The notes under the pieces are model-generated. The model saw nothing but the letters and a program-made list of their open reading frames with translations. It was not told the DNA's origin and made no database searches. Both the position numbers and the translations under genes were made by a program. Below, piece after piece: positions 9,152 through 56,000 of a stretch of DNA of 64,000 nucleotides. Source of the DNA: Giardia intestinalis (lineage: Eukaryota); assembly GCA_000002435.2 (NCBI GenBank), contig CM018789.1; one strand, 5' to 3'. The first letter of the stretch is position 1. Every line of letters starts with the position of its first letter.

Positions 9152-9171
9152 AAACTTTATTTTGAGATGTA

Positions 9172-9178
9172 AGTGAAT
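9172..9178 (+). promoter_or_regulatory. putative Giardia-type polyadenylation signal (AGTRAAY) 21 nt after the stop of the Cys-rich gene
   Basis: AGTGAAT matches the AGTPuAAPy consensus and lies immediately 3' of the stop at 9149-9151. Confidence 0.4.
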
Positions 9179-9224
9179 ACCTTGAGGTTTTTCACCTAGT
9201 CCTTTTTCTCCAAAAAAAAAGTCC

Positions 9225-9629: not shown

Positions 9630-9703
9630 TTAGTCGGGCATTTGCACTGGGCGCCTAACACGGATAACCCGCGGAATAAATCTTAGTTAACGTTAGTGGA
9701 GAC

Positions 9704-35886: not shown

Positions 35887-35908
35887 ATGAAGATGGGAAT
35901 AGATACAT

Positions 35909-37264
35909 TTAGCTCCTCTCTTCATATTTATCTAAGCACAGAAGACAATCTGTGGCCTGAAACTCTTCACACCACTGTCTCACGGTTTTCCCATGGGGGA
36001 ATTGTGAAGATGGAGGTTGCGATAGGTGGTATTCTTTAGGAAGAAGCAGCTCAAATGCTGCCTTTGCATTTGCCTGGCCGGCAGCCATCAGGGCGGTGAA
36101 TCCTGATCCGCACCTATGATGTCCACGTGTTATCAGTGAGCACTCCTTGGCCATCAGGAGTTGCACAGCAAAGACCCAATTATTTGCTGCTGCGATCATC
36201 AGCGCTGTCTCGCCAAAGTAATCGGATTGACCTGCCTCAGCCGGTGCCAGGATTGGAATTGCTTCCATAAAGCCTTCTTTGCATGCAATGATAAGTGCCG
36301 TTTCCCCACAAGCCATTTGCTCACCACCCTCAGCGGAGGCAAGAATATGTAGGGGTTCGATGTGATGATGAATTACAGCTGTTGCTAGGGCGGTATACCC
36401 AAGAAAATTCTTCTGTTTGCGCTGCGCTAAGTTTCTTTGAATCATGGGCAAGTCATTGACGGCGGCGGCTACAATGAGCGGAGTCGAGCCTACTGCGTCA
36501 AGAATACGATACTCTCCGTGAAGCACCTCAAAGGCCTGGAGAATATATGGAGAAGTGTTAAACTCGTGAGAGGTAATTCTATTCGATGGAGACGGGGCAA
36601 CAAAGCGGGTTAAAAGAGCTACCAACGACGAAGATGCCAGACTATAGGCTTCAGTACAGTGTCTGCGGTGTATTTGCGTATTGATGGCATATAGCTCCAA
36701 CATCAGAATACCAATACTATAAAGTGCAGAGCTAAAACTGGTTCTAGTAGGCTTGTGGTCTTTTTGGAGCAAAAGTGGATCAGCTGCTGGAAGTTTTGTA
36801 AAGAGAGACGGGTTTAGTGAAAAATAAATAGAGTCACAAAGAGAAAAGGCCAAAGAGCCGTTGTTTTCAAAGTACAAGGATGTTGGGAGAAAAGTAATGG
36901 TAAGAGGATAGCGTTGAAGCCAACCACCAAGCTTATAGTGCTCTAAGAAGAGCATCACTTGAAGGAGTATTTTGTAGAGATAGCTAACGTCTATGGTGTC
37001 TTCATGAAACAGACACGCAGCAGCAAAAGATTCTAGATTAATACCACTAGTACTAGGCTCTATGATGGCTGTAATCTGATTATCAGTACTTTCCACCTCC
37101 AAGATGCGACCTCTTGGCAAGGCCCCGGGTCTAATTTCTCCAGCGGACGTCACAATCATCCTCTGAAGGGCTCTAGCGTTGATACCTGTTACTGGAGGAA
37201 TGGTCGTGCAAACTCCCAAGCGCCCGCACTTCATCCGTGTCAGATGCCTTTCAAATGTACACAT
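35909..37264 (-). CDS. short Protein 21.1-type protein, with a degenerate kinase-like N-terminal region plus C-terminal ankyrin repeats
   Basis: C-terminal repeats (GYTALATAVIHHH, GETALIIACKEGF, GETALMIAAANNW, GFTALMAAGQANA) follow the ANK consensus. The N-terminus is not catalytically competent. Length 451 aa. Confidence 0.7.
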   Translation of the reverse strand: MCTFERHLTRMKCGRLGVCTTIPPVTGINARALQRMIVTSAGEIRPGALPRGRILEVESTDNQITAIIEPSTSGINLESFAAACLFHEDTIDVSYLYKILLQVMLFLEHYKLGGWLQRYPLTITFLPTSLYFENNGSLAFSLCDSIYFSLNPSLFTKLPAADPLLLQKDHKPTRTSFSSALYSIGILMLELYAINTQIHRRHCTEAYSLASSSLVALLTRFVAPSPSNRITSHEFNTSPYILQAFEVLHGEYRILDAVGSTPLIVAAAVNDLPMIQRNLAQRKQKNFLGYTALATAVIHHHIEPLHILASAEGGEQMACGETALIIACKEGFMEAIPILAPAEAGQSDYFGETALMIAAANNWVFAVQLLMAKECSLITRGHHRCGSGFTALMAAGQANAKAAFELLLPKEYHLSQPPSSQFPHGKTVRQWCEEFQATDCLLCLDKYEERS

Positions 37265-37279
37265 CGACCAATTTTAAAA

Positions 37280-38128
37280 ATGTCCATAGCAGATGCTGAA
37301 AAGCTGATCAAGTCTGCTGAAAAGAGTGCCAAGAAAGGTCTCTTTTCGAAGCCAAATCCAGATGCTGCACTATCTGACTATAGAGAGGCAGGAAAGATAT
37401 TCAAGCAGTTGGGTGCCATGGACCGGGCACAGATTGCTTTCACCCGAGCAGCAGAGTCTGCCGTCAGTGCTAAAATGGAGCAGCCTGCTGCCGTGCTATA
37501 TAGAGAGGCTGCAGAGTGTGCGAGACAACAGCTTGGAGTGGGAAGTGTTAAAAAGGCTGACGTGGCATCTTTGCATCGGAGATGTGCGGAATACATGTGT
37601 CTCGCTGGCAAGTTTCTAGAGGCGGCGCGAGAGTACGTCAATATGTGCAAATATCTTGACAGTACTAAGGATGTCGACTCGACAATGAAGCAAGCCCTTG
37701 CGTTGTTTGAACAGGAAAAAAGACCGATGCAGGCATGTAGCACAATAATGGAGCTTATAGATGCCATCTGTTTGGATAAGACACAACTAGGCAATGTACT
37801 CCAGCTTGTTGAGAAGGCCACGGAAATGTACCGTTCCATGGCCGGCTATGGATTTAAAGTAGACATGCTCACGCTCTTCCACATAGTACTTCTTCTTACT
37901 GCTGATGACCCCGAAAGAGCAAGAGAACAATTGCTAAGATTTGACAGTTTCAAAGATTCGGCAGCCATGGCGGAGGACATTATAAATGCGTATGAGAGTG
38001 GAGACAAGGAGGCCATGGACACCGCGAGAAGCAACAATGGTGCCCGCATCACCTTGACCAACAACATGCTCCGCGTCCTCGACCAGCTAGTGCCATCTGA
38101 AAAGACAGATGCCGAGAAGTACCTTTGA
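37280..38128 (+). CDS. alpha/gamma-SNAP (soluble NSF attachment protein) family, TPR-like
   Basis: MSIADAEKLIKSAEKSAKKGLF...PDAALSDYREAGKIFKQLGAMDRAQIAFTRAAE matches the SNAP N-terminal block. Length 283 aa is typical. The ORF track start at 37244 overlaps the upstream minus gene, so the Met at 37280 is preferred. Confidence 0.7.
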   Translation: MSIADAEKLIKSAEKSAKKGLFSKPNPDAALSDYREAGKIFKQLGAMDRAQIAFTRAAESAVSAKMEQPAAVLYREAAECARQQLGVGSVKKADVASLHRRCAEYMCLAGKFLEAAREYVNMCKYLDSTKDVDSTMKQALALFEQEKRPMQACSTIMELIDAICLDKTQLGNVLQLVEKATEMYRSMAGYGFKVDMLTLFHIVLLLTADDPERAREQLLRFDSFKDSAAMAEDIINAYESGDKEAMDTARSNNGARITLTNNMLRVLDQLVPSEKTDAEKYL

Positions 38129-38542: not shown

Positions 38543-39628
38543 TTAGAAATTGCGGGCCTCAAAGTCCTCTACAATGCGTGTCACGACAGCCAGTGCCGTG
38601 TCACGGTCCTTTGCGCCCCCAAGGAAACCGCTCTTATGAACAAAAGACATGCCCTGGTACCCGCTGACATTCTGAAGCGCTTCGTCCCTCAGCCCGCGCC
38701 AGGCCTCCGGGAGTCCCAGCCTGAATGCAAATGAGCCCTTCTGTGTCGAAACGGTCCTAATACGGTAGCCAGCTTGGTAGTCGTCTGGATGTATGAGAAA
38801 CAGGATAGTGTCACCGCCAGGCCCGTCTTTGCATAGAGATAGATCATGTTCCACCGAATGAATAAATTGTTGATATGGCCCCGGGCTAGAGAGCTCAATG
38901 ATGCGACCACTGGGGTGAAGCTTATGTGCTTGCTCAATAGCTCTAACAAGCTCTCTGCGCGCGGGCAAGTAAGTTATTACTACGGTCTGTATCCACTCCA
39001 TGAAGTCCTGTCCAGCCATCTTGTAAGCTGTTCCAAAACCCTCATCACCGGCAATCTCATAAATGCGAGTGATTCGTGCACTCATAGATGTGGGGTCAGT
39101 CCATCGGCAAATAGGCTCAGACCCATCAGTGTTATAGTGACTCTCTACCCCGTTGTCCACAGCGTCAACCACGCGGATATAGTTGTCATACACATAGTGA
39201 TAGAGAAACTCAAGCTCTGTGGGCCCGTCTAAACGCGGGAAGAGCTGCTTTAGAATACTTCTTCCATAGTGCACATATATTAGTCCTGCAGAACTTAAAC
39301 ATATGTCTTTGTACGCATCTGAAAAGAACACCTGGAAGCCCTTCATGTGATGATCGAAGCACAGCTTCTCGCTATCGTAAACATCCCCCACATCCACTGT
39401 GATGGTAGCAAACTCTAGCTCTTCAGGGTCGCGCGTACGCATGATGCGTGCGTCAATATAATCTGGAAGCTGCTTAATGAACCAAACCGCAAGACATTCG
39501 TCCCAGTGAAATTTACCGTCATGGGTGGCAATAATTTTAAATGGTGTGCCTGAACCCTGCTTAGGGGAGTCAGATGAAACTATGCTTGACGTGGAGGCCA
39601 CGAATTTGAGCTTCGAGGTGTCAATCAT
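38543..39628 (-). CDS. MYG1: MYG1 / UPF0160 / GAMM1 family metal-dependent hydrolase
   Basis: ATHDGKFHWDECLAVW matches the MYG1 'THxGxFHxDE' motif. The downstream block DVGDVYDSEKLCFDHH also fits. Length 361 aa is family-typical. Confidence 0.85.
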   Translation of the reverse strand: MIDTSKLKFVASTSSIVSSDSPKQGSGTPFKIIATHDGKFHWDECLAVWFIKQLPDYIDARIMRTRDPEELEFATITVDVGDVYDSEKLCFDHHMKGFQVFFSDAYKDICLSSAGLIYVHYGRSILKQLFPRLDGPTELEFLYHYVYDNYIRVVDAVDNGVESHYNTDGSEPICRWTDPTSMSARITRIYEIAGDEGFGTAYKMAGQDFMEWIQTVVITYLPARRELVRAIEQAHKLHPSGRIIELSSPGPYQQFIHSVEHDLSLCKDGPGGDTILFLIHPDDYQAGYRIRTVSTQKGSFAFRLGLPEAWRGLRDEALQNVSGYQGMSFVHKSGFLGGAKDRDTALAVVTRIVEDFEARNF

Positions 39629-40291: not shown

Positions 40292-43200
40292 TTTATGGCT
40301 TCCAACATAGATCTGGTACAGGTCGTCTTCCCCACTGCAGTAGTTCATAACGTCTGGAACTGGATAGATACTACCGAGCAGAGGTCAAAGGTCGCTGTCT
40401 TCCTTGTTGACTTCTTGGATCTGCACGACTCCGTCATCTCTGAGCGATGTGACCATCTATTTACCTGTTCGTTCAATAATAAGCGCCCCCAAAAGCTCGG
40501 CCACAGAGCCGCATACGCCGGTGCAGGTGTCTGCGAAGTATCTTCTCTTTTGCCCAGCACGTGGACCAGCAAAAGTCTATTGATAGGCGTGCTTTGGTCG
40601 GCAGGCGAGTTGGCTGACACAACCAAGATCTGCACTGAGATGGCAGAGGTAGTGTTTGCCAAAGGATCTGAGAGGCGCAAATTTCTTATCCAGATACCTG
40701 TATATAGCGAACCACTATCCTTTCTTACGATGTTTACCATAGTCATTGTTCTCTTTCTTTTCTGTATTGCATTAGGGTTTACAATCTTGGCCTGTTTCCT
40801 CATCCAAAGAAGTTACACACAGAAATTTATCGTTCTCACATCACTGAATCGCGCTGCAACCAATTATGCTTACTTTGATTACATTACCAAGCAGATAATC
40901 GCTAAGTGTAAAGACATGCATTCAGTAACCGAGCAGCTTAGGCCATTGGGCCCAAAGCACAAGGAGTTACCGGATTATGCATCCACTAAGGAACCGAAAA
41001 GATCAGCATCCAGGAAGATTGGTATACTTGAGGCTGACCCATACGCTGGAAAGGGCAAAGAACGCAAGCAGGACAACGCTGGCACAGCTCTTACATTGTT
41101 GTCTTCACTTCCTCATATGCCCAACGACGCAGCCGATAACTCAGCGCAACACAGAAGAAAGACACGTCAGCTACGGCATCGGCACAACTTAGGTCCACGA
41201 TTGGCCCCTACTAGACAACTCAGTAGTTTATCCCTTGAAAAGCTGAGAGAACGAGCACTTCCACATTCTAACAATTACGCCGTTGATAACATGACTTCCG
41301 AAGACCAACGTAAGGTCTGCTCATTCCTTCCGAAGCAACCTAATATCATCCAAACTCTTGACGACAATCTTCGCTACTTATCAAGCTATCCCATTGAGCA
41401 CATCTCCAATCTTGACACGAATTATTCATATGAAGTTCATAAATATAACAATGCAAATGTGCTTTTTTCACAAATCGTTATGCCAATCTGGGCCAGCGCC
41501 CTAATATTTTCCAAAACAATGAAGCTACAGGCCATGTCGGACAATAGAAAGGCCGATGTTGCAGCTATCAAAGGGGTCTTCATTTTAGTCGTAGATAAAA
41601 TCTACGATAATAGGTACGTGCTTCCTAGAGAGCTTGTGGGCATCTGTGCCTTCAATAAAAATAGTAAGTTTCACTTCTGCATGATCACTGATTTGAATAA
41701 TTATATGCCTTTGCCGGACTTCCTCCAAGGTGTAAGAGCTAGCGTCAGCAGGCATGGACTTACCTCTGAAAGCTTCTGTTACAATATTAATCTAATCCAC
41801 GAGCTCCTTAGGCTATGCAGACAACGAATGCGAGACAGGAAAGAACCAACTAACATATCGAAAGACGATCAGGCCCACCAAGATTCAAGCACCGACTTGG
41901 AGCCGGACTTGTTGAACACATCTGGCACTAAGCACTTTGTATCACCGGCTTCATCTTTTGTTACGGCACATCCGTCTAAGAGTCCATCCACTGTCTCTAC
42001 TAAAGAATCATCTATTTCTGTCCCTTCCCTCAAAGAACTTAAGAGGATGAACTCTCAAGAGCTGATAGATCTCCTCAGACCAGATGTTTTTACCATCTTG
42101 AATAGGCCTGCCACGAGATTCATTACGATAATCCATGCACTGAATGCTCAGCATATTCGTCGGTCATCGGGTGCAGCCTTTCTGCAGCTAAGGTCTGGCC
42201 AATCCCTGGAAGCCGCGGGAAAGTGTCAGCAACGGCAGACGGATAGCGCTGTAGACGATAAACCTGATAGAACTAGCTCTTTTTCGGGCTCCCGACGAAA
42301 CAAGACTCTACTTTATAAACTTCCGCCTTCCCATCTTCAGAGCAAGCTGCGAAACTCTAAAAACATATCAGAGACATCTGAAGTAACAGAGTCGTCAAAT
42401 GATGATAGATACAGTGACAACTTACCGTTAACTCCTTTGTTTGACGGGTTGCAAGGCACAAGAGACAGCACTGACAGTTCAGACCCTGATAATTGTGACA
42501 TAGTTGCGTGCTTGTGCCACAAGCTAGAGCAAACAGCAGACGTCAAATCTGGCGACACTCAGCTTCGGGCAGTGCCGTTGGACACTGTAGCGACGCAGAG
42601 CGTTTCGCAATGTATTTCACAGAGCATTTCGCGGTCATCCTATACTATGCTCCCACCACTTCCATTGAAGTATAGCACTAGCCCTACACCTAGCTCTACA
42701 TTCACGCCATGCACAGATACCCAAGTCTATATGGAAGCCCACAGCAGCTTTATGTTCGGTAGCTGCTTAGTTGAGGACTGTGCTCTGCAAGAAATTTATG
42801 ACGCTTTGGCATACTTGGGATCATCTGCCAGGGAGCGTATGGCTCGACTTTTAATAAAAGAGATTGCTACACGCAGGCACAGCCTTAAGGACATACAATA
42901 TTTTGACAAGGATTGCATACTAATTAGCATGGATCGTGTATTAACTGATTCTGAGATGGAAGTCGAGATTGACATTAAGCTGGAGCCATTCTCTATGTTG
43001 CTGCGAAACATCAATATGATACCCCGACCAGTTACCGCGAAGACAGACTGTGGGAATACGTCAAGTGTCGACATGTATGTGCGGATTCTGCTTATCTATT
43101 TAGAGCTTATCACTCTCCTGGATTGTACGCAGAGCGATTTGGAGGAACTTTCTATCTTCTTACCTGAGCTCAGAGGCGACGCAGACTACGGGACTGCAAT

Positions 43201-43345
43201 TCAGCGTCTGCTGCTATTGATCAAGGACTTCTCCACAATAGTATCGGGGGAAAGAAACGACACAAGCGGCGGAGCTAGCGGAGCCGGTGCTAGTTTAACG
43301 AAAGCAGACTTGTGGAGAGGATATTTACTCCCTATATTCACATGA
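40292..43345 (+). CDS. hypothetical protein of about 1017 aa with one predicted TM segment (FLTMFTIVIVLFLFCIALGFTILACFLI)
   Basis: The long ORF beginning at 40184 would overlap the nitroreductase start and read through the microsatellite. The Met at 40292 (MASNIDLV...) is the likelier start. No family recognised. Confidence 0.55.
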   Translation, partial: FMASNIDLVQVVFPTAVVHNVWNWIDTTEQRSKVAVFLVDFLDLHDSVISERCDHLFTCSFNNKRPQKLGHRAAYAGAGVCEVSSLLPSTWTSKSLLIGVLWSAGELADTTKICTEMAEVVFAKGSERRKFLIQIPVYSEPLSFLTMFTIVIVLFLFCIALGFTILACFLIQRSYTQKFIVLTSLNRAATNYAYFDYITKQIIAKCKDMHSVTEQLRPLGPKHKELPDYASTKEPKRSASRKIGILEADPYAGKGKERKQDNAGTALTLLSSLPHMPNDAADNSAQHRRKTRQLRHRHNLGPRLAPTRQLSSLSLEKLRERALPHSNNYAVDNMTSEDQRKVCSFLPKQPNIIQTLDDNLRYLSSYPIEHISNLDTNYSYEVHKYNNANVLFSQIVMPIWASALIFSKTMKLQAMSDNRKADVAAIKGVFILVVDKIYDNRYVLPRELVGICAFNKNSKFHFCMITDLNNYMPLPDFLQGVRASVSRHGLTSESFCYNINLIHELLRLCRQRMRDRKEPTNISKDDQAHQDSSTDLEPDLLNTSGTKHFVSPASSFVTAHPSKSPSTVSTKESSISVPSLKELKRMNSQELIDLLRPDVFTILNRPATRFITIIHALNAQHIRRSSGAAFLQLRSGQSLEAAGKCQQRQTDSAVDDKPDRTSSFSGSRRNKTLLYKLPPSHLQSKLRNSKNISETSEVTESSNDDRYSDNLPLTPLFDGLQGTRDSTDSSDPDNCDIVACLCHKLEQTADVKSGDTQLRAVPLDTVATQSVSQCISQSISRSSYTMLPPLPLKYSTSPTPSSTFTPCTDTQVYMEAHSSFMFGSCLVEDCALQEIYDALAYLGSSARERMARLLIKEIATRRHSLKDIQYFDKDCILISMDRVLTDSEMEVEIDIKLEPFSMLLRNINMIPRPVTAKTDCGNTSSVDMYVRILLIYLELITLLDCTQSDLEELSIFLPELRGDADYGTAIQRLLLLIKDFSTIVSGERNDTSGGASGAGASLTKADLWRGYLLPIFT

Positions 43346-43586: not shown

Positions 43587-44579
43587 TTAACGTTTCGAGC
43601 GCATGATCTGCTGTATCTTTACCCCTATTGTCATTAAGATCTTGGCCTGAACTGACAAGTGCTCACCAATTTGCTTTACTATGGACGGATCTTTAAGAGC
43701 AGGGTATCTGGCCATAAAGTCCTTTTCCACTTTGTCCTTATCCCCGTCTAGAACCTCCTTCAGTAACAGAAAGCGGCTACGCAGTGTATCTCCGTATTGT
43801 GATTCTAGGGATTGGTTAATTTTCTTACATGCAAGCTCGTGCGTTATTGGTATCCCCGTTTGCTCCTCTAATCTGGACCCTATGGAGAAAATTAACAGCG
43901 TTGACTTCTTAGACAGCTCTTTGAGCTTCTTACTATTATCTAGCACTTTATCTGTTTCTTGGTAAATAGATTCCATATCTTTCTTTATCTCTTGTAGCGT
44001 CGTGGTGTGTGCAGCTGCCCGTGCAGCCAGCTGTTCAAACCCGTACACGAGGACGGGGGAGTATCGCGTGCAGTCAGGGCAGCACCGCCTTGCCTCCAGC
44101 CAGAGCTTTTCATCGTTATACGGTGGAACGTTGGGGTCGGCAGAGGGAGGTTGCGGGGCCGGTGGAGCCCCAAAACCGGGTTTGGAGAAGCTTCCGAAGC
44201 CAGAACCAAACCCGCTAAGGCCTGTCGTGAGAGGCGCAGGTGGAGGATCCTTTTTAGAGGCAAGCTCATCGTAAAAGAAGCCGGAGAGAGGGGTCTGGTA
44301 AGATGAGGCGTAGATATTAAGAAGAGAGCTGAAAACGTCGACAAGCCTGCCCTTCTGTGCCATAAGATGAAGAGATTGAGGAATGTCTATCTGCTGTTGA
44401 TGGCTGCACGGCCCCTGCACCTCCCGTTTTGCATTGTCGTTTGTAGGAGCATTAAGGCCAAAAATACCCTTATCTGCAGACAAAGAAACACCGATGGATG
44501 AAGACGTTAGCGGGGCAGACGGTTTTGATACTCCAGAGAAGGCTGCAATAGACATGGGCTGAGCGTTGAAGGACCGCAT
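43587..44579 (-). CDS. FG-repeat protein with C-terminal coiled coil, candidate central-channel nucleoporin (Nup54/Nup58-like)
   Basis: The middle region GLSGFGSGFGSFSKPGFGAPPAPQPP carries FG repeats. The N-terminus is Ser/Thr-rich. The C-terminal 150 aa are predicted alpha-helical/coiled coil (LEEQTGIPITHELACKKINQSLESQYGDTLRSRFLLLKEVL...). Confidence 0.5.
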   Translation of the reverse strand: MRSFNAQPMSIAAFSGVSKPSAPLTSSSIGVSLSADKGIFGLNAPTNDNAKREVQGPCSHQQQIDIPQSLHLMAQKGRLVDVFSSLLNIYASSYQTPLSGFFYDELASKKDPPPAPLTTGLSGFGSGFGSFSKPGFGAPPAPQPPSADPNVPPYNDEKLWLEARRCCPDCTRYSPVLVYGFEQLAARAAAHTTTLQEIKKDMESIYQETDKVLDNSKKLKELSKKSTLLIFSIGSRLEEQTGIPITHELACKKINQSLESQYGDTLRSRFLLLKEVLDGDKDKVEKDFMARYPALKDPSIVKQIGEHLSVQAKILMTIGVKIQQIMRSKR

Positions 44580-44607
44580 GACTCAATGAAATTTATTCTT
44601 AGAAACA

Positions 44608-45654
44608 TCAGGTTAAATGGCTAATGCTCAGGTTATCCGATGGCGCTGCGTCCGATTCTGCCCGTTTGTGGACAAGCTTGACACGCAGCTGCTCCAAAAA
44701 CTCCAGCTCTTGGGCAATGAAAGCTCTTAAATCTGCAGTGGTCCGGGAGTCAAGGGTCATCCAAAGAGTGTTGAAATCTCCAAACCCGCTACGCATCGAT
44801 GAGAGGGTTACAAGCTCTCTTGTCGTCCCTTCAACCATATCACCTAGCTGAGTCGCTGCACTGAGTATTGCTTTCCGCTGAGCCGGATTGGAACACCCAT
44901 ACTCCCGCTCTTCAATAATCTTCATGAGTTTAAAAGAAATAGCTCCGTAAAGGGAGGTGCATTGAGATAAAAGAGATGAAATGACATTCGAGTGATTGAC
45001 CAAGTCGTTTAGACGCTCGTCAAAGTTATAAGCAGACGGCGAAGACAATCCATCCTTGAGCTCGCTAAGTTTAGCAGTGTGGGTATTTGCGCGTGTAACC
45101 AGCCCCTCTATCCCGACAACTTCATTTGCATCTGACTTACCTTGAGCAGGCTTTTGTTGGAAGCCAAGGCCGAAACCAAAACCAGATCCTCCACTTTGCC
45201 CCAAAACGCCTCCTCCTCCGAAGCCGCCAAACCCTCCTGGCTTTGTCCCAAACCCTAAAGTGCCCGAGGACCCTAGCGTACCAGATGTGGCTGTGGTAGT
45301 TGGTAACGGCTTGTCTAACTTTAGTCCTGCTGATTTAAAGTTCGCCTTGAAGAGGCAAGTATCTGATTCGGTTGGCAGATAGGCCTTTTCCAGTACTGTG
45401 GCAAACACTCCAGCTCCTATTGTGTTGATAACCCGTGCCATCTCACTTTGCTGAGTCGTGTTTTGGGCTTGCCCGGCTAGGCTTCCAAACTCCATGCTGG
45501 GCTTGGCCCCAAAGCCCCCGCCAAACGTCGTGCCTCCTGCTGAAGTAGACCCAGAACCGAAGGTACCGAAGGTACCAAAGCCCGTGGGCTTGGCCCCAAA
45601 GCTGAAGCCCGACGTGGGAGCGCCTGCAGAAAATGCACCGGCCTGCATTTCCAA
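44608..45654 (-). CDS. FG/GFG-repeat protein with C-terminal coiled coil, candidate Nup62/Nsp1-like nucleoporin
   Basis: The N-terminal half is SGFSFGAKPTGFGTFGTFGSG...GFGGFGGGG...GFGFGLGF, which are FG, GFG and FGxxP repeats. The C-terminal 130 aa are heptad-like (ELVTLSSMRSGFGDF...LEFLEQLRVKLVHKRAE). This architecture is the Nup62 family's. Confidence 0.55.
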   Translation of the reverse strand: MEMQAGAFSAGAPTSGFSFGAKPTGFGTFGTFGSGSTSAGGTTFGGGFGAKPSMEFGSLAGQAQNTTQQSEMARVINTIGAGVFATVLEKAYLPTESDTCLFKANFKSAGLKLDKPLPTTTATSGTLGSSGTLGFGTKPGGFGGFGGGGVLGQSGGSGFGFGLGFQQKPAQGKSDANEVVGIEGLVTRANTHTAKLSELKDGLSSPSAYNFDERLNDLVNHSNVISSLLSQCTSLYGAISFKLMKIIEEREYGCSNPAQRKAILSAATQLGDMVEGTTRELVTLSSMRSGFGDFNTLWMTLDSRTTADLRAFIAQELEFLEQLRVKLVHKRAESDAAPSDNLSISHLT

Positions 45655-45704: not shown

Positions 45705-46448
45705 ATGAGCAGGAACACCTTCATGAAGAAATTGGCCGACAAGATAAACTACAAGGCCGACGACAATGAGATTTATGAGAAACGATTGGCCTTGGCACAG
45801 TTGCTGGAGGAGTTTGGTTCGCTGCCAATGCTTGTTGTAAGTGGATTTTTGCAAAAGAGTATCGGTGGGATGTTTTTCAATGGAACGGTCGCCTTTGTCG
45901 GCATCGTTATGGCGTGGATCTTGCCGGCCAACGCCTTGTTTGATGCTTTTCTTTTTCTTTCAATATTCACGCTTTTGAAGATCGTGTTTTCGGCGGCTGC
46001 AGTTGATAAAGCGATCGATGACATGCTAAAGAATGTCAAGAATAGAGAGATTATTTACGAAAAACTCCTGAAGAGTATGGCCAAGCACGCAGTCTGTACC
46101 CGTACCGCCTTCGAGACCCTCGGAGCTCAGAACCAACTTATGCTTATGATAGTACTAACCTTTTTCGCCTTCTTTATCCCCCTGCCCGTCTTCGCCACCA
46201 TCGGCCTTCTGCTCGTCGCATTATTCCCCGTTTATAACATAATCTCGAAACAGGAGGCAGAACGATTCCTGGCCTCACCACCGGTCTCTCCACGTGTGCG
46301 AACAAACCACCCTATTCGCGGTGGGGTTCCCGACTCTCTTGTCAATTCCCTGCGTAATGATCAAGCAGCTAATGATGCAGGGTCTCAACTGGTCACATCT
46401 CTCATCCCGCCGCCACCACCACCACCGCCAGCTAAGCTTGGTGAATAA
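45705..46448 (+). CDS. double-hairpin membrane protein (reticulon / Yop1-DP1 / PRA1-like topology) with a poly-Pro C-terminus
   Basis: Two hydrophobic hairpins of about 40 aa each (FNGTVAFVGIVMAWILPANALFDAFLFLSIFTLLKIVF and LMLMIVLTFFAFFIPLPVFATIGLLLVALFPVY) are separated by a hydrophilic loop of about 50 aa. It is a paralogue of 49185..49763. Confidence 0.55.
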   Translation: MSRNTFMKKLADKINYKADDNEIYEKRLALAQLLEEFGSLPMLVVSGFLQKSIGGMFFNGTVAFVGIVMAWILPANALFDAFLFLSIFTLLKIVFSAAAVDKAIDDMLKNVKNREIIYEKLLKSMAKHAVCTRTAFETLGAQNQLMLMIVLTFFAFFIPLPVFATIGLLLVALFPVYNIISKQEAERFLASPPVSPRVRTNHPIRGGVPDSLVNSLRNDQAANDAGSQLVTSLIPPPPPPPPAKLGE

Positions 46449-46524: not shown

Positions 46525-49143
46525 ATGGACAGCCGCCCAGAAGAACCTGCAGACCCGACGGAGGTTGTGGATAATCCGTTGCCGCCCAGTGTCCCATATG
46601 CCTCTGTGCCTCTTCTTGTCGGGGAGGAGTATGCTGCTCCTCTTAGCTGTGCAATAAACCCAGCAAAAGATCTTATCGCATGCGGAACGGAGACAGGAGT
46701 GCTTCTCATTTATCACTCCTTTTCGATGCAGCTTGTCCGTTCACTGAAAGTGGATGAAAATGCCATCTATAAACTTATTTGGGCCCCAGATAGCCAATCT
46801 ATATTGGCCATCACTATGGGCTCAATCCTATGGGTCTCCCTTGCCAGAGATACTAGCATAACTAGGATGGTGAGCGGAGACTCGATCTACGTTCCCGGGC
46901 AGGCAGCCAAGGGAGGTTCGAACGAATACTTAACTACGCAGGGAACTGGCAGGGAAGATCCACTCAGGGAACCCCAGGGAGACATTATAGAGGCGTGGAG
47001 TCTAGAGGATCAAGAGCTCTCCCTATTGTCATATTCTATTTCAGCATGGTTAATAGAAGTCGATCCTTCTGCTCTCCATTATACAAAGTTCGGTGCTGAA
47101 AATTTCCGCTATAGATCTTGCTTCCGGGTCATAGGAGTAGAGCTACTCATTACCGTAGCACTAAACTACTATGAAGCCACTGGGCTGAAGTCTATAATCT
47201 TTCTTGCAAATAAGTGCAACGATCCATCGTCAGACATGCACTCCTGGGCAGCTATCAACGAAGTCGACTACACAGCTGCCCTTGCCGATGCCTTTGGTGT
47301 GACCAGCATTCCGGCCACATCTGATGTCCTGGCGATCACGGGGCACGTCTTTGTAGTCTCAACTGGTCTTAAGTATGTCATTTTTCGTCGCAATACACTA
47401 TTTACGCCTTACAATCTCGCTGGAAAGGTGGATTATGCATCTCAGTTGCTAATCCAGGGTATAGGGTACACAGGGTCTGTTAATGAGCGGCGATTTGAAG
47501 CCCATAAGCAAACCCTTCATACCAATGAAGAGCCAACAATTGCCGTCACGTTTGTAACAACTAAGCAAACGATGGCGGTTACCAATTTCAGCACTGGTAT
47601 CGATACTAAGAACACAGGTGTCAGTAGAGGGACAAGTGCAGATGCATACGAAGTTCTGAGGGCTTTGATGTCTATTCCTCGGCAAGGAGAGGGCAATCAA
47701 TCTTATGTTGCGGAGTTTCGGTCATTCCACCATTTTTTTCTGTTCATTTATGCATATCACGCGTCTCTTTGTAGAGCAAGCATTACTTATGGACGCTCTC
47801 GCTTCTATCAAGCGCTAACAGACCTCACCTTTCAATCCCTATTCACTTCGGCAGCCAACGCAGCACGGGAAGGAGATGCCTTTACAAAACTAATGACAAT
47901 CCTATCATTTACCTTTTCTGCTGACATATGTGACTTCAGTTCGGTAATATACGATGAGCTAATAGCATCTTTCACTCTTGTAGAGGTCAGCGACGGTTGT
48001 AAGAGTACAGAGAAAACGGCAACAATAGATATGTACATGACAGGTGTGTTCAACTTGGCAGACATATTTAAAGCACTCGGAGATGATGTTCTGAAGCAGG
48101 CACCGGACCTATGTCTTCTTTATCCCAATCCCAGCCTTGCAGAGCTGCTCCTCAACTATCGCATCATCTCCTTCAAAACGAGTATTGACAAGCAGTGGTT
48201 GTATGTGGCCAATCCTCGATTCATACTGACTCTTTCTACCAAGCATAATGTGTGTGAGATATATGAATATGGGGAGAACTTCCTCATCAGCGACCTAGTT
48301 TTTGATATGAGGCCCTTCCCGGCCATTCACGTTGAATTTGGCTATGCTCCCTACGAGCTAGTGATGGCATCAGTAGGGTATTCTCCCCCATACACTCCAG
48401 AGAACATACGGTTACTGTCTGCCAATTGTAGCAAAACTACTATAAAGCAGACAAACGTGCTGTACGCAAATCTGGCCTCGCTGTCACAAGCAAGCAGGGT
48501 CACCAGTAGAAACGCAAGTCGGAGGCTAAGGCTAGTTCCACAGAGGAAGTCAAGGAGAAGGATAGACAAACGGAAACGAGATGCCCCTAGCCCAATCAGC
48601 ACCCTGTCAGAAAACAGGGGTTTCAGAGGAAAGAAGGTGAATCAGCAGAGAACACAGGCTAACCCAGAATCTAGTGCAACAGGTCCATTAACCAGTGATG
48701 ACCTTTCAAGCATAACAACCAGCTCTATGGTCAATCCAAATGAAGCAGGAGCCCAGGAGGAGAACCTAGCTATTACTACTTCAGACATAGACTCACTGCA
48801 GCGCCTCCTTCTGCAAGTAGAGCCACAGCTGGTGTTTTGGGCGTGCAGAGAAGTGCAGGACTTCAACAGCTGTTTCCCAGGCTTTGAAACTGTTAGCACC
48901 AATGTACTATATATAGAACGCGAGGACGAACTAGACATAGATCAGTCAGATCTATATCCCCCGACTGCGCTACCCCGGGCTGTTGACGTGGATTACAGAG
49001 AACTCCAATATCCGACGAAGACCGTGCAGGATGACGAGTTAGATATATTATCACTGGAAGACAGCATCCCAGCATACCATTACTTGCGATCTTATGCAGA
49101 GGTTCATGAGCTTCCCATAAAACTGACCATAGAAATAATATAA
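46525..49143 (+). CDS. hypothetical 872-aa protein. The N-terminus has WD/beta-propeller-like character, and the C-terminus is acidic
   Basis: Long ORF. N-terminal blocks such as LIACGTETGVLLIYH and IYKLIWAPDSQSILAIT resemble propeller blades. No confident family. Confidence 0.55.
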   Translation: MDSRPEEPADPTEVVDNPLPPSVPYASVPLLVGEEYAAPLSCAINPAKDLIACGTETGVLLIYHSFSMQLVRSLKVDENAIYKLIWAPDSQSILAITMGSILWVSLARDTSITRMVSGDSIYVPGQAAKGGSNEYLTTQGTGREDPLREPQGDIIEAWSLEDQELSLLSYSISAWLIEVDPSALHYTKFGAENFRYRSCFRVIGVELLITVALNYYEATGLKSIIFLANKCNDPSSDMHSWAAINEVDYTAALADAFGVTSIPATSDVLAITGHVFVVSTGLKYVIFRRNTLFTPYNLAGKVDYASQLLIQGIGYTGSVNERRFEAHKQTLHTNEEPTIAVTFVTTKQTMAVTNFSTGIDTKNTGVSRGTSADAYEVLRALMSIPRQGEGNQSYVAEFRSFHHFFLFIYAYHASLCRASITYGRSRFYQALTDLTFQSLFTSAANAAREGDAFTKLMTILSFTFSADICDFSSVIYDELIASFTLVEVSDGCKSTEKTATIDMYMTGVFNLADIFKALGDDVLKQAPDLCLLYPNPSLAELLLNYRIISFKTSIDKQWLYVANPRFILTLSTKHNVCEIYEYGENFLISDLVFDMRPFPAIHVEFGYAPYELVMASVGYSPPYTPENIRLLSANCSKTTIKQTNVLYANLASLSQASRVTSRNASRRLRLVPQRKSRRRIDKRKRDAPSPISTLSENRGFRGKKVNQQRTQANPESSATGPLTSDDLSSITTSSMVNPNEAGAQEENLAITTSDIDSLQRLLLQVEPQLVFWACREVQDFNSCFPGFETVSTNVLYIEREDELDIDQSDLYPPTALPRAVDVDYRELQYPTKTVQDDELDILSLEDSIPAYHYLRSYAEVHELPIKLTIEII

Positions 49144-49184: not shown

Positions 49185-49763
49185 ATGCCGAGCAAGTGCC
49201 CCCTCCGTGATCACATTGAGAAGCTCAAGACTGGAATCGCGCCAGACGACCTTGCTAGATGCAAGACAGAAGTCGCCGAGTGCGTGTCAAAGTTCAAGAC
49301 ACCAGTCAAGATCTTCCTGGGTGGTGTGACCTATGAGCACCTCTACGCAGTCGTGTTCAACGCCGTCATTTCTGTCATCATCCTGGTTATCGCATGGAGC
49401 CTTCCGCAGAATGCTCTCTTCAACGTTTGTTTGATCATTACCTTGCTCATGGGGGCGAAATTTGTATTCCAGCATCCGATCGTCGAGAGCAAGCTCGGGC
49501 TCATTTCTGGGAAGCTCGGTCCAGGGGACGCCAAGCTCGACATGCTAGTCGACACCCTCGCTGCCCTTCGTGCCCGACGCATTCAGCTCAAGGACACATT
49601 CTTCAACGACAATAAGAAAGTGCTCGCCCTCCTTGCCGGCCTCGCCTTTCTCTCCTTCTTCATCTCGACCCCTGTCATCGTCACAGTCGTTCTTGTTGTC
49701 CTTAATCTAGTGCCTTTCTATGTCAGATACGTTGTGGCGTCTCACAAGCAACCGGAGAACTGA
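49185..49763 (+). CDS. double-hairpin membrane protein, paralogue of 45705..46448 (reticulon/PRA1-like)
   Basis: Shares the motif VIAWSLPQNALFNVCLIITLL with AWILPANALFDAFLFLSIF in the paralogue, and has the same two-hairpin architecture. Length 192 aa. Confidence 0.55.
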   Translation: MPSKCPLRDHIEKLKTGIAPDDLARCKTEVAECVSKFKTPVKIFLGGVTYEHLYAVVFNAVISVIILVIAWSLPQNALFNVCLIITLLMGAKFVFQHPIVESKLGLISGKLGPGDAKLDMLVDTLAALRARRIQLKDTFFNDNKKVLALLAGLAFLSFFISTPVIVTVVLVVLNLVPFYVRYVVASHKQPEN

Positions 49764-50147: not shown

Positions 50148-53027
50148 TTAAACCTTGCTACCTCGCTTATCGGGAAGCATCGCATCGACACGCTTGGCAA
50201 GCTCCTCTAGAGATTCTATTAGTTCCTGGCTCATAGCGGGACTGCACATGGCGGCATGCTCGGACCTGGCCCGCCTAGGGCACAGATTGTGATGTTGCAT
50301 CATGTCTTGCTTCCCAATAACGGCCTCAGCATACTTGGTTTGCTCTGATTTATGTCTAGCAAGTTGCCGCACTTGGTGCTGAAGCTTTAATATTCGTTCC
50401 TCATATACGTCGTGTTCTCCCGCTTCATCTTTGCCCTTTAGCAGTCTGTATTTCTTTTCTCCTTGTCTCAACGCTTCGGCGCCATGTGTGCGCAGTGACA
50501 TGAGCTTGGTTACGTAGACAATAGCTTTTCTGAGATTCTGCTTGTATGCGTCGCGCTGCTGCAGTGCTTTATTCAGATCTAACAACAGCTTTGTTTTTTC
50601 TACATTAACATTATCAATCTCAATTGTCGACGAGACCCGAGGGGAAGAGGATCTGATTCTCTGCCGTGACAGCTCCGCGTTAAGCCTTGTGCACTCAGCA
50701 ACTAGCTTCTGGTTGCAATCGTTGAGCTTCTGATGCTTTTGTAGAAGAGCTTTAAGTTCAGTTTCTCGAGCGGCACACTCCGCTTTCAGCTCACTGCACT
50801 GCTGCTTTGTTTCTCGCAAAGCCTCCTCAAATCGGGGCGCTTGAAGCACGCTACTTATGAGCTCGGCAGGCCCCATCTCCGGGCATACGTCCGTTTGAAC
50901 CGCACAGCTGGTGGTGTGGATGGGGCTTTGGAGCGAGTAGCACTGTAGGGATACAGGCTCAGAGTCGTCGCCGCTTGCTTGACATGCAACCGACTTCGTG
51001 ACGAGTGTCACTGTTGATATAAGCATCGTGTGTGTGGCTTTGTTAGAAGTTGCCATAATATGCTGACATGCAGTGGATACACTATTAGTGGCCTTGTCTG
51101 TCTGAGTTGCTGCGCAAGAGGCGGCGTGGATACCCTCCCCTGGTGGACTTGATACGCCAAACCGCGTGAGAGACGCTAGCATGCATTTCTTGCAGTAACC
51201 TTCCTCTATCACAGCAAGCTCTGCCTCCTGCAGTTTAATTTGATCTGTCATGCTGACGATATTATCCTCCAGCAAGCGAATGTGGGCGTTAGCCTCCATC
51301 ATCTTGCCGGTAATGGTCATCTCTGCTTCTGCCATTGTTGATTCTCGAATAGCAGCTAGCTCAGCTCGATGATTTTCAATTGTGGAGGCTAATTCCTTCT
51401 CCACTCGGGAAAGATTGGAGGCTAAATCGTCGCGTTCGGCAGTCATTTCTTGCAAATTCTCCTGCGTAGTTCCTACGGCGTTCCGCAGCTGCTCTATCTC
51501 CTCTGTAAGATTAGAAATGGCTCTTCGCGCCTTTGCTAGTTCTGCTTTGTCATGGTAGCTCGACTGCTCCTCTTCGTTGTGAACCTGCACAAGGGCATCT
51601 ACAAGGATTTTAATTTCATCATTCTTCTGCCGTATCTTCTGATTGAACTGGCTATACAAGTCCTCGGTTACCATTCCGATTCTGTTGCATTGTACCTCAG
51701 CCCTTGCCAGAGCTATGCTTTCAGACAGCAATCTGAAGGTGCTTGAGACTTCATCGATGGAGTGCTCTGGACGCTTATCGAGGAGATGCAGAGGATAATT
51801 CTCTTGAAGAGGGTCCTGGCACGGAAGCATTGGTCGAGAAGGTTGTGCTGCAACAGCCCGACTGACAGATGGTACCAACAGCCCAGGGTCCGTCTGAGTT
51901 TCTGCCACTGCCGATGAACAGAGTTGTTGTTGTTGCTGTAATGATAAGGATAATGATGGTGATGAGTCTGTTAGTTTTAGAGGAGCAGCAGTCCCAGAAA
52001 GTTCAGGTTGATGCGTGCTGCAGAATGTCTGTGCACTAGCACCAAGATAGTCTAGAAGATCATTGCTTTGAGATAGTCTGAGATTGCTGGACCTCAGTGT
52101 GGCACACGTGGCAGACAGCGAAAGTACCTCCTCTTCTAGATGCTCCTTCTCATGCTTAGTCTCAGCTAGCGCATCCTTCAGACTCTTGATTGTCTCCCCT
52201 CGCTTGTTGAGCTGCATAATCGTTTCTTCGAGAAGGCCCTTCGCATCTTGTAGCCGAGCTCTCATAGAAAGAAGGAGCTCAGATGCCCGGCTTCGTGATA
52301 GGCTCTGCAGTTGGTCCGTTATCTGGACTGTGTTATACGTTTGCAAGTTTGGAAAAGCAACCAGTAGGCCGACAATGTGTGCAAGATCGGTGTGCGTTGT
52401 ATCGGAACTGTTGGCTTGAGATTGGAGGTCTAGCTGAAGCTCGCACAGAGTAAGTGCATTGAGTGCAACAGAGGCCATGGTAATAAATGTTTGGACTGGC
52501 GTTTTTCCCGGAATGAAGACTCCGGATATGGCTAATTTGCGGACATGGCTATAGCGCCGCCGAACAGAGGCGCTAAGAGAAGGGTGCTCCTTTAAAAGCG
52601 TCTGCTCTTCCTCCCTTGCTTGAAAAACAACATTATCAATGCTGATCTCCTTGACCATTGGAAATTTGTCTGCATCTCCTAAGAAGATCAGCAGCTCTGA
52701 AAGGCTAGTGTCAAGCCGCAGGTGAGCCAGACTTATGGTACGAATATGCTTATAGTTTGCTAGAAGACCAATATCGCGAATTGAGTGGTTGTTTATCAAT
52801 ACCGATTCAATCCGAGGATTGATGCGCACAGTAGACAAAGCACGAATAGGCTCCTGTTGGACGCGAGGATAATCTAGATTAAGGAAGAGATCAGCCATTG
52901 CGCTCATCCCTACAAATCTGCCGATGCGACGAGCTGTTGGCGGAATTGTTAGATTGAAATGGATTTTGGACAAAAAGCATGAAAGTAAATTTAACACAAA
53001 AGCAAATGGCTTCGGCTGCACTGGCAC
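50148..53027 (-). CDS. hypothetical large coiled-coil protein (about 920-959 aa) with a possibly LRR-like N-terminus
   Basis: Extensive heptad and charged regions (LEEEVLSLSATCATLRSS..., AELAAIRESTMAEAEM..., ELKALLQKHQKLNDCNQKLVAECTRLNAELS). The track start at 53027 overlaps the divergent neighbour, so an internal Met at about 52907 or 52898 is the likelier start. Confidence 0.6.
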   Translation of the reverse strand: MPVQPKPFAFVLNLLSCFLSKIHFNLTIPPTARRIGRFVGMSAMADLFLNLDYPRVQQEPIRALSTVRINPRIESVLINNHSIRDIGLLANYKHIRTISLAHLRLDTSLSELLIFLGDADKFPMVKEISIDNVVFQAREEEQTLLKEHPSLSASVRRRYSHVRKLAISGVFIPGKTPVQTFITMASVALNALTLCELQLDLQSQANSSDTTHTDLAHIVGLLVAFPNLQTYNTVQITDQLQSLSRSRASELLLSMRARLQDAKGLLEETIMQLNKRGETIKSLKDALAETKHEKEHLEEEVLSLSATCATLRSSNLRLSQSNDLLDYLGASAQTFCSTHQPELSGTAAPLKLTDSSPSLSLSLQQQQQLCSSAVAETQTDPGLLVPSVSRAVAAQPSRPMLPCQDPLQENYPLHLLDKRPEHSIDEVSSTFRLLSESIALARAEVQCNRIGMVTEDLYSQFNQKIRQKNDEIKILVDALVQVHNEEEQSSYHDKAELAKARRAISNLTEEIEQLRNAVGTTQENLQEMTAERDDLASNLSRVEKELASTIENHRAELAAIRESTMAEAEMTITGKMMEANAHIRLLEDNIVSMTDQIKLQEAELAVIEEGYCKKCMLASLTRFGVSSPPGEGIHAASCAATQTDKATNSVSTACQHIMATSNKATHTMLISTVTLVTKSVACQASGDDSEPVSLQCYSLQSPIHTTSCAVQTDVCPEMGPAELISSVLQAPRFEEALRETKQQCSELKAECAARETELKALLQKHQKLNDCNQKLVAECTRLNAELSRQRIRSSSPRVSSTIEIDNVNVEKTKLLLDLNKALQQRDAYKQNLRKAIVYVTKLMSLRTHGAEALRQGEKKYRLLKGKDEAGEHDVYEERILKLQHQVRQLARHKSEQTKYAEAVIGKQDMMQHHNLCPRRARSEHAAMCSPAMSQELIESLEELAKRVDAMLPDKRGSKV

Positions 53028-56000
53028 TCTTGCATGCCCCGGGATTCTCGACCAATGAAGAGGCCATCAAGCTTGTGCAAGAGCAGATTGAAACAATCCA
53101 CTATCAAGTCGACACGGGAACTATCGTTGATCTTTGCCGTGTGGCTCTTCAGACCAAGGCTCCATCTCTCTGCTTACTTCTTTCACGCTTCTACCACGCA
53201 GAATCGAGGATAGGACTCGCTGCCTTTTTCGCCCTTCTTCCTGACCCGGCAGTGCTTTCCCTCACAGAGTCTGACCTCTACAGCCAGGAGATCATGACAT
53301 CTATCGTCGATTTTTATATAGCCTACCGTTCTGGGTTGGTCGCTGGCTCGCTAGCGTCTGTAAGGTATACAGAGGACAGCACAACAGGGAATCTGCGCCA
53401 AGTCAGCCAGCCCCATGGGTCCTCCAGTGTCAATTGTAGTGCACATGGTAGCTCTGTGATCTTTGGCAAGCAGTCTGCCACCGATTTACTTGCGTCCAGG
53501 CAAAGTGTGCATTTTGCCAATAAGAACGCCACACTCTTTGGACTCGATCAAAGTGGGTCTGTGCTTCTAGACGACCAGTCCAGAGCTGGTGCCGCGGGGT
53601 GCTCTTCTTCCACACTTATTGGGAAGAGCGTCGTGGGCCATTCCTCGCAAGCAGATCGCAACCGTACACGCATGTTGACCGACGACGAGTTTGTAAAAAT
53701 GTACATCACTTCTAGGCCGACCACGACGTACCAAGAGCTTTGCACTATCGGTAATCCAGACAGCATTGTTTTTAGTGAGCTTTTGCATGCTGATCTGAAC
53801 AAGATAACCGCGGTTATCGATGCAATCATCGAAGGATCCAAGATGCACTCTAAACTTAGCTTCCTATTGCAGACACAGCACATTGAGCCTACGCGAAAAG
53901 CCGAAAATGTGACTATTGATTTGTCCTATTTGCAGATACCAGGGATGCCTGACCTACAACCAACAGACATTCAAACCAATGCCGACAATGACTTTGTTAT
54001 TCCGCGGCTCTCTGAATTGACCAGCGTCACTGCAACTCCTTTTATCCGGCAACTACCCCTTGACACCTTGCGGACGATGGAGAAGGATGCTCACTTTATA
54101 ACTGATTTTGCCTTTTGCTCTAGTATTTTGTGTGCTGTTGGAGACGAATACAAAAGAAGATGCTTGTTCGAAGACGCAGCCCGCTGCTATGCACAGAACA
54201 GCAATCTTGAGCCATTGGCAACGCTGTTTTTGGATATGATAAAGCTTATATCTGAGCCATCTGGCGCCGCCTCTACTGTTTCTGTTCCTGCACCAGAAAA
54301 CAAGGTGCGCAACATAATCATCTCTCATACCATACAGCTGGCGTTCCAAGTATTTCAGGACTTGCCCGGCGCTATGCTAGACAATCTCATTTCGATGCTG
54401 AAGGAGGAAAGCATCCCAACGCCCTTCGGCTCTGCATTTCTCGGCTCTCTCAAAAACCATATCTTAACAGGAAAATGCCAGAGCTCTCTTTACAAAACCG
54501 TTTTTGCTGAAAAGACTAATACGCGGATCGACCGCAACATCCTCCTCAAAATCCAGCAAAACATCCACAGGTCCTCTTCGGACTCGTTTATAATCACTAC
54601 CGCCTTCTTTATGGCCAGTCTTATGCATGCGCAGCTAGGGCACTCGCTACAATCAACAAAGGACCCCTCTGTCAATCTTTCGACATGGGATAAATTTGGG
54701 CGTATATCTTACGAGGGGATAATCTTCCGGGGTGTAACAATGCCTGGTGACGTGGGTGTCTACAATAAATACTACTCTGTCATGAAGGCTGGAAACCTCA
54801 CTGCCGACATTGATGGGTATGCCTGCGGCGGTATGCTCCTTGGCCTAGGCATCATGACCTCAGAGATGCCTTCAGTTGACGGATTTTCCTCGTACACCCT
54901 TTTGAACGCAGCTGAGCCGATCCTCTCCAATCCTGGAAGGTACATGCTGCTTTTTGATGAGAACGGGATGCTCGCCCCCCGCCCTTCAATGTCGGTTCAG
55001 GGCTATGAGGCCTTTGTTTTCGGATATGCCGTCTCAGCAGGGCTCATGTGCTTGGGGACTAGCAACGAGAAGCTCACTACCCGCCTGAAGTCACTCTTGA
55101 CTTCTCCAGCTGCGTCTCACCCTGACGCAATCTATGGTATATTGTTTGGCTTGGGCCTAATTCACTTAGGTGATCCTCTATTTCTCAAAGCATTCAATTT
55201 CAATGAGTTCTACATTTCCAAGTTTGGAATGGGCATGACAACGTCAAAGACAACGATCACAGTAACGGATGAGCCTCCTAAACTTTATACAGACCTTGCG
55301 GCGACCGTTCTTGAGTTTCTTGTGTCCAAACATGAAAAGGTGCGGACAGGTGCCGCAATGTGCATTGCTCTTTGCTGCTACTGTATTGACGCTCAGGCCA
55401 ACCAAGCCATAGAGTTTCTTCTGGACTTTGAGCCGCGGATTCAGACTTCGCATCTCACGTCGAACAAGCTTTGTGATGGCATTCAGAAAGCGGGGCCAAT
55501 CGCCCTGGGCCTGGCATATGCTCATACTAACTCCCTCGAGGTGGCGACCCAGCTTGTCAGCATAGCTTCTCGCTCCACGGTGGATGAGGTGAGCTATCAC
55601 GGACTGGTAATGATAGCCTTTGTGCTCTCCTCCCAGCGTAGCTTTGCTAATGAGCTCCTCATCCTCGCTGCCAAGTCTCACCGGGTTGCATGCAGACAGG
55701 GTGCAGCTCTGGCATTGGGGTATATTAACGCGGGAACATGGGACCCAGTTGTCGTTAAGGAGTTGCGCGATTTGATGAGCGACCAAGTTGAGGCCGTGCG
55801 CACGCACGCCATTATTGCACAGGCGTTGGTCTTGCAGACGTGCAGCGCCCCGACGCTTCCTGAGAAGATTAAAATTGAGTCGGATGCTCCATTAGGAGAT
55901 AGGCAGAAGAATGTTATCTATAAACAGGACCATGATCCCACGTTCATTAGAAAGGTCGCGGCTTTAAACAAGCTTCGACATATTCCAGGAAGAGTCCAAG

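Follow-up and report, generated by a model that had tools for sequence, protein, structure and literature searches.

A conserved tandem of Nup54 and an FG-rich, Nup54-like candidate nucleoporin in Giardia duodenalis

The DNA analysed here, referred to as the window, is a 64-kilobase (kb) stretch of the genome of Giardia duodenalis (intestinalis), assemblage A, isolate WB. The locus in question consists of two neighbouring open reading frames (ORFs) on the minus strand, in distinct reading frames: gene A (43587-44579), which encodes the Giardia orthologue of the nucleoporin Nup54, and gene B, located upstream of A and rich in phenylalanine-glycine (FG) dipeptides. An original prediction, made from the sequence alone, had described two adjacent same-strand genes in a diplomonad, and both the arrangement and the host proved correct, apart from a shift of 6 nucleotides (nt) at the end of B. 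The ORF of B had been called mechanically from a TTG at 45654 (M-E-M...). The annotated protein and all of its orthologues begin at the ATG at 45648, two codons on, and the earlier end coordinate of 45654 was therefore 6 nt too far. The locus is composed as follows.

44608..45648, minus strand: gene B, 346 amino acids (aa), GL50803_0014400 (100% identical), annotated 'hypothetical protein'; an FG-rich, Giardia-restricted, Nup54-like candidate nucleoporin
44580..44607, no strand: A/T-rich spacer of 28 nt between the stop codon of B and the ATG of A, read from the sequence
43587..44579, minus strand: gene A, 330 aa, the Giardia Nup54 orthologue, XP_001709163.1 / KAE8301760.1 (exact sequence match)

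No clear polyadenylation signal of the Giardia AGTRAA type was found at the junction of B and A (window positions 44580-44640). With a gap of 28 nt and no such signal, the 3' end of B and the promoter of A must overlap, and coupled transcription or read-through of the pair is possible. The idea that A and B are a single gene broken by a frameshift was rejected, since they occupy different frames, each has its own ATG and its own A/T-rich upstream stretch, and they are separate genes in Giardia muris too.

Gene A is an orthologue of Nup54/Nup57. It matches the Pfam Nup54 model (PF13874) with 40.9 bits (E=2.6e-10, aa 152-225), above the gathering threshold of 30.5 bits, and its orthologues carry PF13874 in precomputed annotation. 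The A-family profile matches the Nup54/Nup57 chains 5c3l_A, 5ijn_F, 7wkk_G, 5cws_E and 7tbi_O1 of the PDB (E 0.006-0.02), and the residue-level match spans W.EA..NPD...P...GF..L..R. Against a pan-eukaryotic Nup54/57 alignment from which Giardia had been removed, hhalign gave a probability of 97% (E ~1e-10; 6e-11 in one run). The proposal that one gene of the pair is Nup54-like thus holds for A. This identity is already known: the product is named 'Nucleoporin complex subunit 54' in NCBI/UniProt, and the identical sequence appears as the row 'nup54_giardia_l_gi|159117887' in the Nup54 alignment that accompanies Neumann et al. 2010 (PMC2951903). Gene A has been in the databases as Nup54 since at least 2010 and, taken alone, adds nothing new. 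Three of its parts matter for the comparison with B.

44247..44402, minus strand: A aa 60-111, conserved region with a degenerate Nup54 N-side motif, LLNIYAS-SYQTPLSGFFYDE, to be compared with W[DN]-P..P.C.F..FYN; recognised from conservation and collinear hhalign alignment
44166..44219, minus strand: A aa 121-138, short GFG patch with 3 FG, inside an insertion of ~30 aa that is lacking in G. muris Nup54
43905..44126, minus strand: A aa 152-225, Pfam Nup54 domain match, with the W.EA..CPD...P.LVYGFEQLAAR motif and the start of the first coiled-coil segment; recognised from Pfam, the alignments to 5c3l_A and 5ijn_F, and file 53 of Neumann et al.

The degenerate N-side motif of A aligns collinearly with an extended Nup54 profile in hhalign, and is not significant by itself. 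Like other Nup54/Nup57 proteins, A lies above the Pfam cutoff and has the W.EA..CPD motif region and a helical tail, but it is short and almost devoid of FG repeats. The description of the locus as a tandem pair of FG-repeat proteins is accordingly right for B and overstated for A, which contains 4 FG dipeptides, 3 of them within one 15-aa GFG patch (aa 123-137; shuffle p ~0.007). Across G. duodenalis the count in A is 3-4 (p 0.004-0.03); the G. muris orthologue has 1 and is not enriched. Given that the insertion carrying the patch is missing in G. muris, the patch looks like a recent gain and not like an ancestral FG domain. By eye, the spacing from YFYD to LWYEAQQNNPDP in G. muris Nup54 (L001:6992-7831), set against aa ~107-138 of A (44166-44260), resembles that of other eukaryotes.

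Gene B has 13 FG dipeptides where 3.4 are expected from its composition, a number reached in 0 of 5000 shuffles, and it is the most FG-dense ORF of the window. Its FG blocks contain 5-7% charged residues and 28-34% Gly, and B fits the generic description of an FG nucleoporin. The enrichment is conserved: orthologues of B from G. duodenalis lineages carry 12-14 FG, and those of the G. muris type carry 7. The protein is built of four regions.

45484..45609, minus strand: B aa 14-55, FG block 1, with 7 FG of the FSFGAKP, GFG and FGAKP types; Phe and Gly positions invariant among G. duodenalis lineages
45304..45471, minus strand: B aa 60-115, conserved non-FG island with a predicted helix at aa 64-89; contains VLEKAYLPTESDTCLFKANF, aligned with the Nup54/57 N-side motif W[DN]-P..P.C.F..FYN
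45163..45261, minus strand: B aa 130-162, FG block 2, with 5 FG and very Gly-rich; sits where Nup54 proteins have the W..A..NPDP segment
44647..45123, minus strand: B aa 176-334, C-terminal domain with VVGIEGLVTRA, EEREYGCS and FNTLWMTL; Nup54-like according to hhalign, helical in low-confidence AlphaFold2 models

An island placed between two FG blocks is an unusual layout for a channel nucleoporin, and the match to the N-side motif covers only ~20 of its 55 residues. The island may possibly serve as a docking motif.

C-terminal coiled coils had been proposed for both proteins, and this was borne out in part. Both tails, 150-160 aa long (~160 aa in B), contain little Pro and Gly, and that of B is predicted to be helical, at low confidence, by AlphaFold2; however, a simple heptad score of hydrophobicity at a/d positions did not separate the tails of A and B from the rest of the two proteins. 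For full-length B, modelled from an alignment of 7 sequences, the predicted local distance difference test score (pLDDT) was 34.6. When the tail of B was modelled by itself, from an alignment that also included the G. muris orthologue, the pLDDT was 57 and the predicted template modelling score (pTM) 0.39. This low-confidence model places helices at aa 180-201, 209-248, 255-284, 292-296 and 303-334, and the tail, as an isolated chain, folds back into a bundle. The model is compatible with a three-segment coiled-coil subunit.

The distribution of B is restricted to Giardia. When 1.84 billion representative proteins were searched exhaustively by HMMER with the C-terminal profile of B, relatives were found in Giardia only, namely G. 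duodenalis proteins and one 327-aa protein (E=5e-11) that is encoded in the G. muris genome GCA_006247105.1. A 3137-aa repetitive protein that appeared in the same search (E=5e-5, 8 short stretches) was treated as a low-complexity match. Neither B nor its orthologues in G. duodenalis and G. muris matched Nup54, Nsp1_C or Nucleoporin_FG2 in a Pfam scan at E<=10; the Nucleoporin_FG model had a sub-threshold match in G. muris B alone (E=0.03). Searched against the PDB, the single B sequence and two B profiles yielded nothing but chance matches to coiled coils, with E 0.1-3 (coronavirus spike HR1, Dad2 and similar). Our literature searches found no mention of B (GL50803_14400), and on Giardia nucleoporins they found only Neumann et al. 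2010.

The family to which B is most similar was sought by comparing profiles. Files 53-55 of the supplement to Neumann et al. 2010 (PMC2951903) supplied the alignments for the family profiles, which comprised 31 Nup62/Nsp1 cores, 26 Nup58/Nup49 helical domains and 35 Nup54/57 cores. Giardia was left out of the last set, which was later lengthened at both its N- and its C-terminal end. The B family profile consisted of 7 sequences from 2 deep lineages and was compared with them by hhalign. As nulls, 40 column shuffles plus a reversal were used, and for the extended Nup54/57 profile the reversed profile and 45 shuffles. In the published Nup58/Nup49 alignment (file 54), fungal Nup49 is out of register: its first coiled-coil segment is paired with segments further along metazoan Nup58. 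In the MAFFT re-alignment used for our profile, a common segment start 'F..LP....' appears in fungi, animals, plants, Naegleria, Phytophthora and Leishmania. The comparisons gave the following values.

B family against Nup62/Nsp1: hhalign probability 1.4% (0.9-1.4% across runs), score 18.8 (17-19), null maximum 16.8
B family against Nup58/Nup49: probability 0.2%, score 14.8 (14-15), null maximum 15.8
B family against the coiled-coil part of Nup54/57: probability 40%, E=3e-4, score 31.3, null maximum 19.2
B family against the non-metazoan Nup54/57 profile with the N-side motif, over 165 collinear columns: probability 56%, E=1e-4, score 36.0, against 18.3 for the reversed profile and a shuffle maximum of 18.4
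B family against the Giardia Nup54 family (A): probability 90-92%, E ~1e-6, score 51.5-54.0

The similarity of B to A starts at aa 178 of B and at aa 178 of A, so the two are aligned in register, and the C-terminal tails alone score 32.7 against a control maximum of 27. In HMMER searches with a Nup54 HMM built for this analysis, the A family scored 29-37 bits and was followed by the two G. muris-type B proteins, with 8.9 and 6.6 bits, above all 93 other ORFs of the window. With B, HMMER gave at most 3.4 bits for Nup62/Nsp1 and at most 4.3 bits for Nup58/Nup49. A likeness between the middle regions of A and B that had been noticed by eye was not borne out by hhalign, and each of these regions aligns weakly to the Nup54 N-side motif only within the full-length profile.

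The hhalign alignment of B with Nup54/57 is collinear. VLEKAYLPTESDTCLFKANF falls on the N-side motif; FG block 2 appears as an insertion at the position of W..A..NPDP; EVVGIEGLVTRA aligns with P...GF.dL..R, the start of the first coiled-coil segment of Nup54; EEREYGCS aligns with the R..G kink, and GDFNTLWMTL with ..ELW.RL. Each of the single motifs of B is non-significant, and the N-side motif or island alone reaches a score of 16.9 and a probability of 1.9%. It is because they occur collinearly and in register that the match between B and Nup54 is credible. Compared with Nup54/Nup57, then, B has a degenerate N-side motif, the first coiled-coil start, the R..G kink and the LW motif in the same order, but it differs in failing the Pfam model, in having an FG block in place of W..A..NPDP and in being found only in Giardia.

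The assignment of B as Nup54-like is thus moderately supported by these profile comparisons, whereas assignments as Nup62-like or Nup58-like were tested and are not supported. The original prediction had named the two genes as candidates for a Nup54/58-like and a Nup62-like protein. The Nup62-like partner failed the profile comparison that had been proposed for it, with no Nsp1_C match and an hhalign score near the null, and the Nup58-like option for B likewise stayed at null level. The suggested search of the helical domains against Nup62 and Nup54 gave a divided result, in that A matches Nup54 and B shows a weak Nup54/57 signal (40-56%), but no Nup62 signal.

The order of the two genes is conserved. 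In G. muris, a 279-aa gene with the Pfam Nup54 domain begins 7 nt after the orthologue of B and on the same strand. Another lineage of the G. muris type (Logan SRR30592944), with a B protein 82% identical to that of G. muris, has the same arrangement of B and Nup54 with a 12-nt spacer. The G. muris pair maps to 44.0-45.0 kb of the window, and its flanking genes map to 4.3-12.8 kb and 32.8-37.9 kb. With the flanks mapping elsewhere, a local rearrangement or insertion would have taken place between the two Giardia species, the pair staying intact in order and orientation. The idea of a linked pair of channel nucleoporins with FG repeats and coiled coils is plausible and gains support from this conserved adjacency.

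The genes that flank the G. muris pair (L001 1-5800 and 9553-12983) encode a kinase, a dCMP deaminase, a glutaredoxin, an 892-aa protein and a SNAP-domain protein; their counterparts in the window (4296-12760 and 32851-37897) lie 7-40 kb from the pair.

The best explanation that we can offer is that the locus encodes two paralogous central-channel nucleoporins, Nup54 and a Nup54-like protein, a reading whose chances of being right or wrong we judge to be evenly balanced. Weak but consistent signals point to B as a candidate for a second channel nucleoporin of Giardia, and judging from its sequence it is probably a paralogue of Nup54. In such a pair, A would be mainly a structural subunit, almost without FG repeats, and B a fast-evolving, Giardia-restricted subunit that carries nearly all of the FG motifs. 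The non-FG parts of B would correspond to Nup54 in collinear order: 'P...C.F..F', the first segment start 'V-G-[FI]-E-x-L-x-x-R', the 'R..G' kink, a second segment ending in 'LW.xL', and a third helix. B may have arisen by an old duplication of Nup54 that predated the split between G. duodenalis and G. muris. The helical tails of A and B would zip into a heteromeric coiled coil of the Nup62-complex type on the inner ring, possibly with the participation of a third chain or of a second copy of A or B, and the two FG blocks of B would project into the channel and bind transport receptors of the importin-beta type. Localisation of B at the nuclear pore and its interaction with A are what we infer.

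The survey of Neumann et al. 2010 (PMC2951903) gives this proposal its setting. It lists only about seven nucleoporin candidates from Giardia: among its nucleoporin files, Giardia sequences occur only for Nup107, Nup155, Nup35, Nup54, Nup98, Rae1 and Sec13, and none is present in the Nup62, Nup58 or Nup93 files. Since Nup54 is there and Nup62 and Nup58 are not, the partner subunits of Nup54 are unaccounted for, which leaves an open slot. A more far-reaching version would be that Giardia has lost recognisable Nup62 and Nup58, and that its channel module is formed by Nup54 and a Nup54-derived B, encoded genus-wide by a tandem pair, with nearly all of the FG barrier of the module on B. We consider this version rather doubtful. 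If it were true, it would represent a paralogue-replacement form of the otherwise pan-eukaryotic Nup62-Nup58-Nup54 trimer, and it would imply that paralogues can replace the original subunits of the channel trimer.

Several results weigh against a Nup54-like B. The hhalign probabilities of B against Nup54/57 are just 40-56%, below the level usually accepted as proof, and profiles of coiled coils are prone to spurious matches. The Pfam Nup54 model does not match B at E<=10; in HMMER, the bit scores of 6.6-8.9 for the G. muris-type B proteins are low, and G. duodenalis B is not among the best twelve matches. B is also devoid of W..A..NPDP, the most conserved part of the Nup54 domain, and only the second half of the start motif is present (EVVGIEGLVTRA). 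In their middle regions (aa 56-120), A and B show no similarity to each other by hhalign (0.4% probability). Given that the B profile is shallow, with its 7 sequences from 2 deep lineages, and fast-evolving, the negative results with Nup62 and Nup58 are not strong exclusions. Finally, a spacer of 7-28 nt makes a break unlikely, so that the adjacency of the two genes could persist without selection.

A common origin and a shared three-segment coiled-coil architecture might also lend a likeness to Nup54 to an extremely diverged orthologue of Nup62/Nsp1 or Nup58/Nup49. The layout of B, an FG region followed by a predicted helical tail of ~160 aa, is generic to all three subunits, and Giardia has no recognised Nup62 or Nup58. 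B carries one FSFGAKP motif plus FGAKP/FGTKP motifs, and motifs of the FSFGAKP type are characteristic of Nsp1 repeats. In addition, the Nup62 and Nup54 family profiles show a low cross-signal between themselves (12.9%), which indicates that at such a depth one family is not easily told from another. There is also some likeness to Nup58/Nup49, in that the conserved island of B lies between FG blocks, just as the helical region of vertebrate Nup58 is bordered by FG at either end (Neumann et al., file 54). Nevertheless, B differs from both families. It has no Pfam match to Nsp1_C or Nucleoporin_FG2; its hhalign score is close to the null maximum against the 31-species Nup62/Nsp1 core (18.8 vs 16.8) and at null level against Nup58/Nup49 (14.8 vs 15.8). 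Neither the Nup62 motif 'I..W...L......F..QA..V..WD', with its W...L...F..QA..V..WD signature, nor the 'F..LP' first-segment start of Nup58/49 is present in B, whereas the motifs specific to Nup54 align in register and collinearly. An orthologue of this kind appears unlikely to us.

B could, on the other hand, have nothing to do with the pore, and be a Giardia-specific Gly/Phe-rich coiled-coil protein, for example of the cytoskeleton or of RNA granules, that happens to adjoin Nup54 and whose profile signal is an artefact. Giardia encodes many lineage-specific coiled-coil proteins; B matches no curated family, its best PDB matches are chance alignments to coronavirus spike HR1 helices (E 0.1-0.5), the hhalign probabilities are modest, and synteny is weak evidence when the intergenic distance is so short as to be hard to break. 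Such an artefact is hard to reconcile with the strong FG enrichment of B, which has been kept across ~70% sequence divergence, or with a likeness that is specific to Nup54 among the coiled-coil profiles, lies ~17 score units above the reversed and shuffled nulls, and is collinear and in register over two separated conserved regions. The partner gene of B is, moreover, a bona fide Nup54. We regard a B that is not a nucleoporin as improbable.

A precedent for the proposed channel subunit comes from a divergent excavate, Trypanosoma brucei. Obado et al. 2016 (PMC4758718) assigned its proteins TbNup62, TbNup53a and TbNup53b as the equivalents of Nsp1, Nup49 and Nup57, relying on reciprocal affinity capture together with a domain architecture common to them. 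Like the Giardia candidates, these channel subunits combine FG repeats and coiled coils; however, the T. brucei system comprises three proteins and was assigned experimentally, whereas that of Giardia consists of two adjacent candidate genes known from sequence.

Few model eukaryotes have a nuclear pore as poorly defined as that of Giardia. If B were the channel partner of Nup54, it would offer a second entry point to the transport channel of this deeply divergent parasite with its two nuclei. The value that remains in the original prediction is a concrete candidate for a second channel nucleoporin of Giardia.

The surroundings of the pair are a mixture of typical Giardia 'hypothetical' genes and recognisable genes. 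Six long ORFs around it had no Pfam match at E<=0.001:

32836-35886, plus strand: ORF, no Pfam match
40295-43345, plus strand: ORF, no Pfam match
45705-46448, plus strand: ORF, no Pfam match
46525-49143, plus strand: ORF, no Pfam match
49185-49763, plus strand: ORF, no Pfam match
50148-53027, minus strand: ORF, no Pfam match

The 247-aa ORF directly upstream of B is hydrophobic and ends in a C-terminal poly-Pro run. The recognisable, housekeeping neighbours are:

35909-37264, minus strand: ankyrin-repeat protein
38543-39628, minus strand: MYG1-family exonuclease (E=1e-86)
52979-57025, plus strand: 1348-aa protein with proteasome/cyclosome (PC) repeats
57096-58208, plus strand: ribose-phosphate pyrophosphokinase

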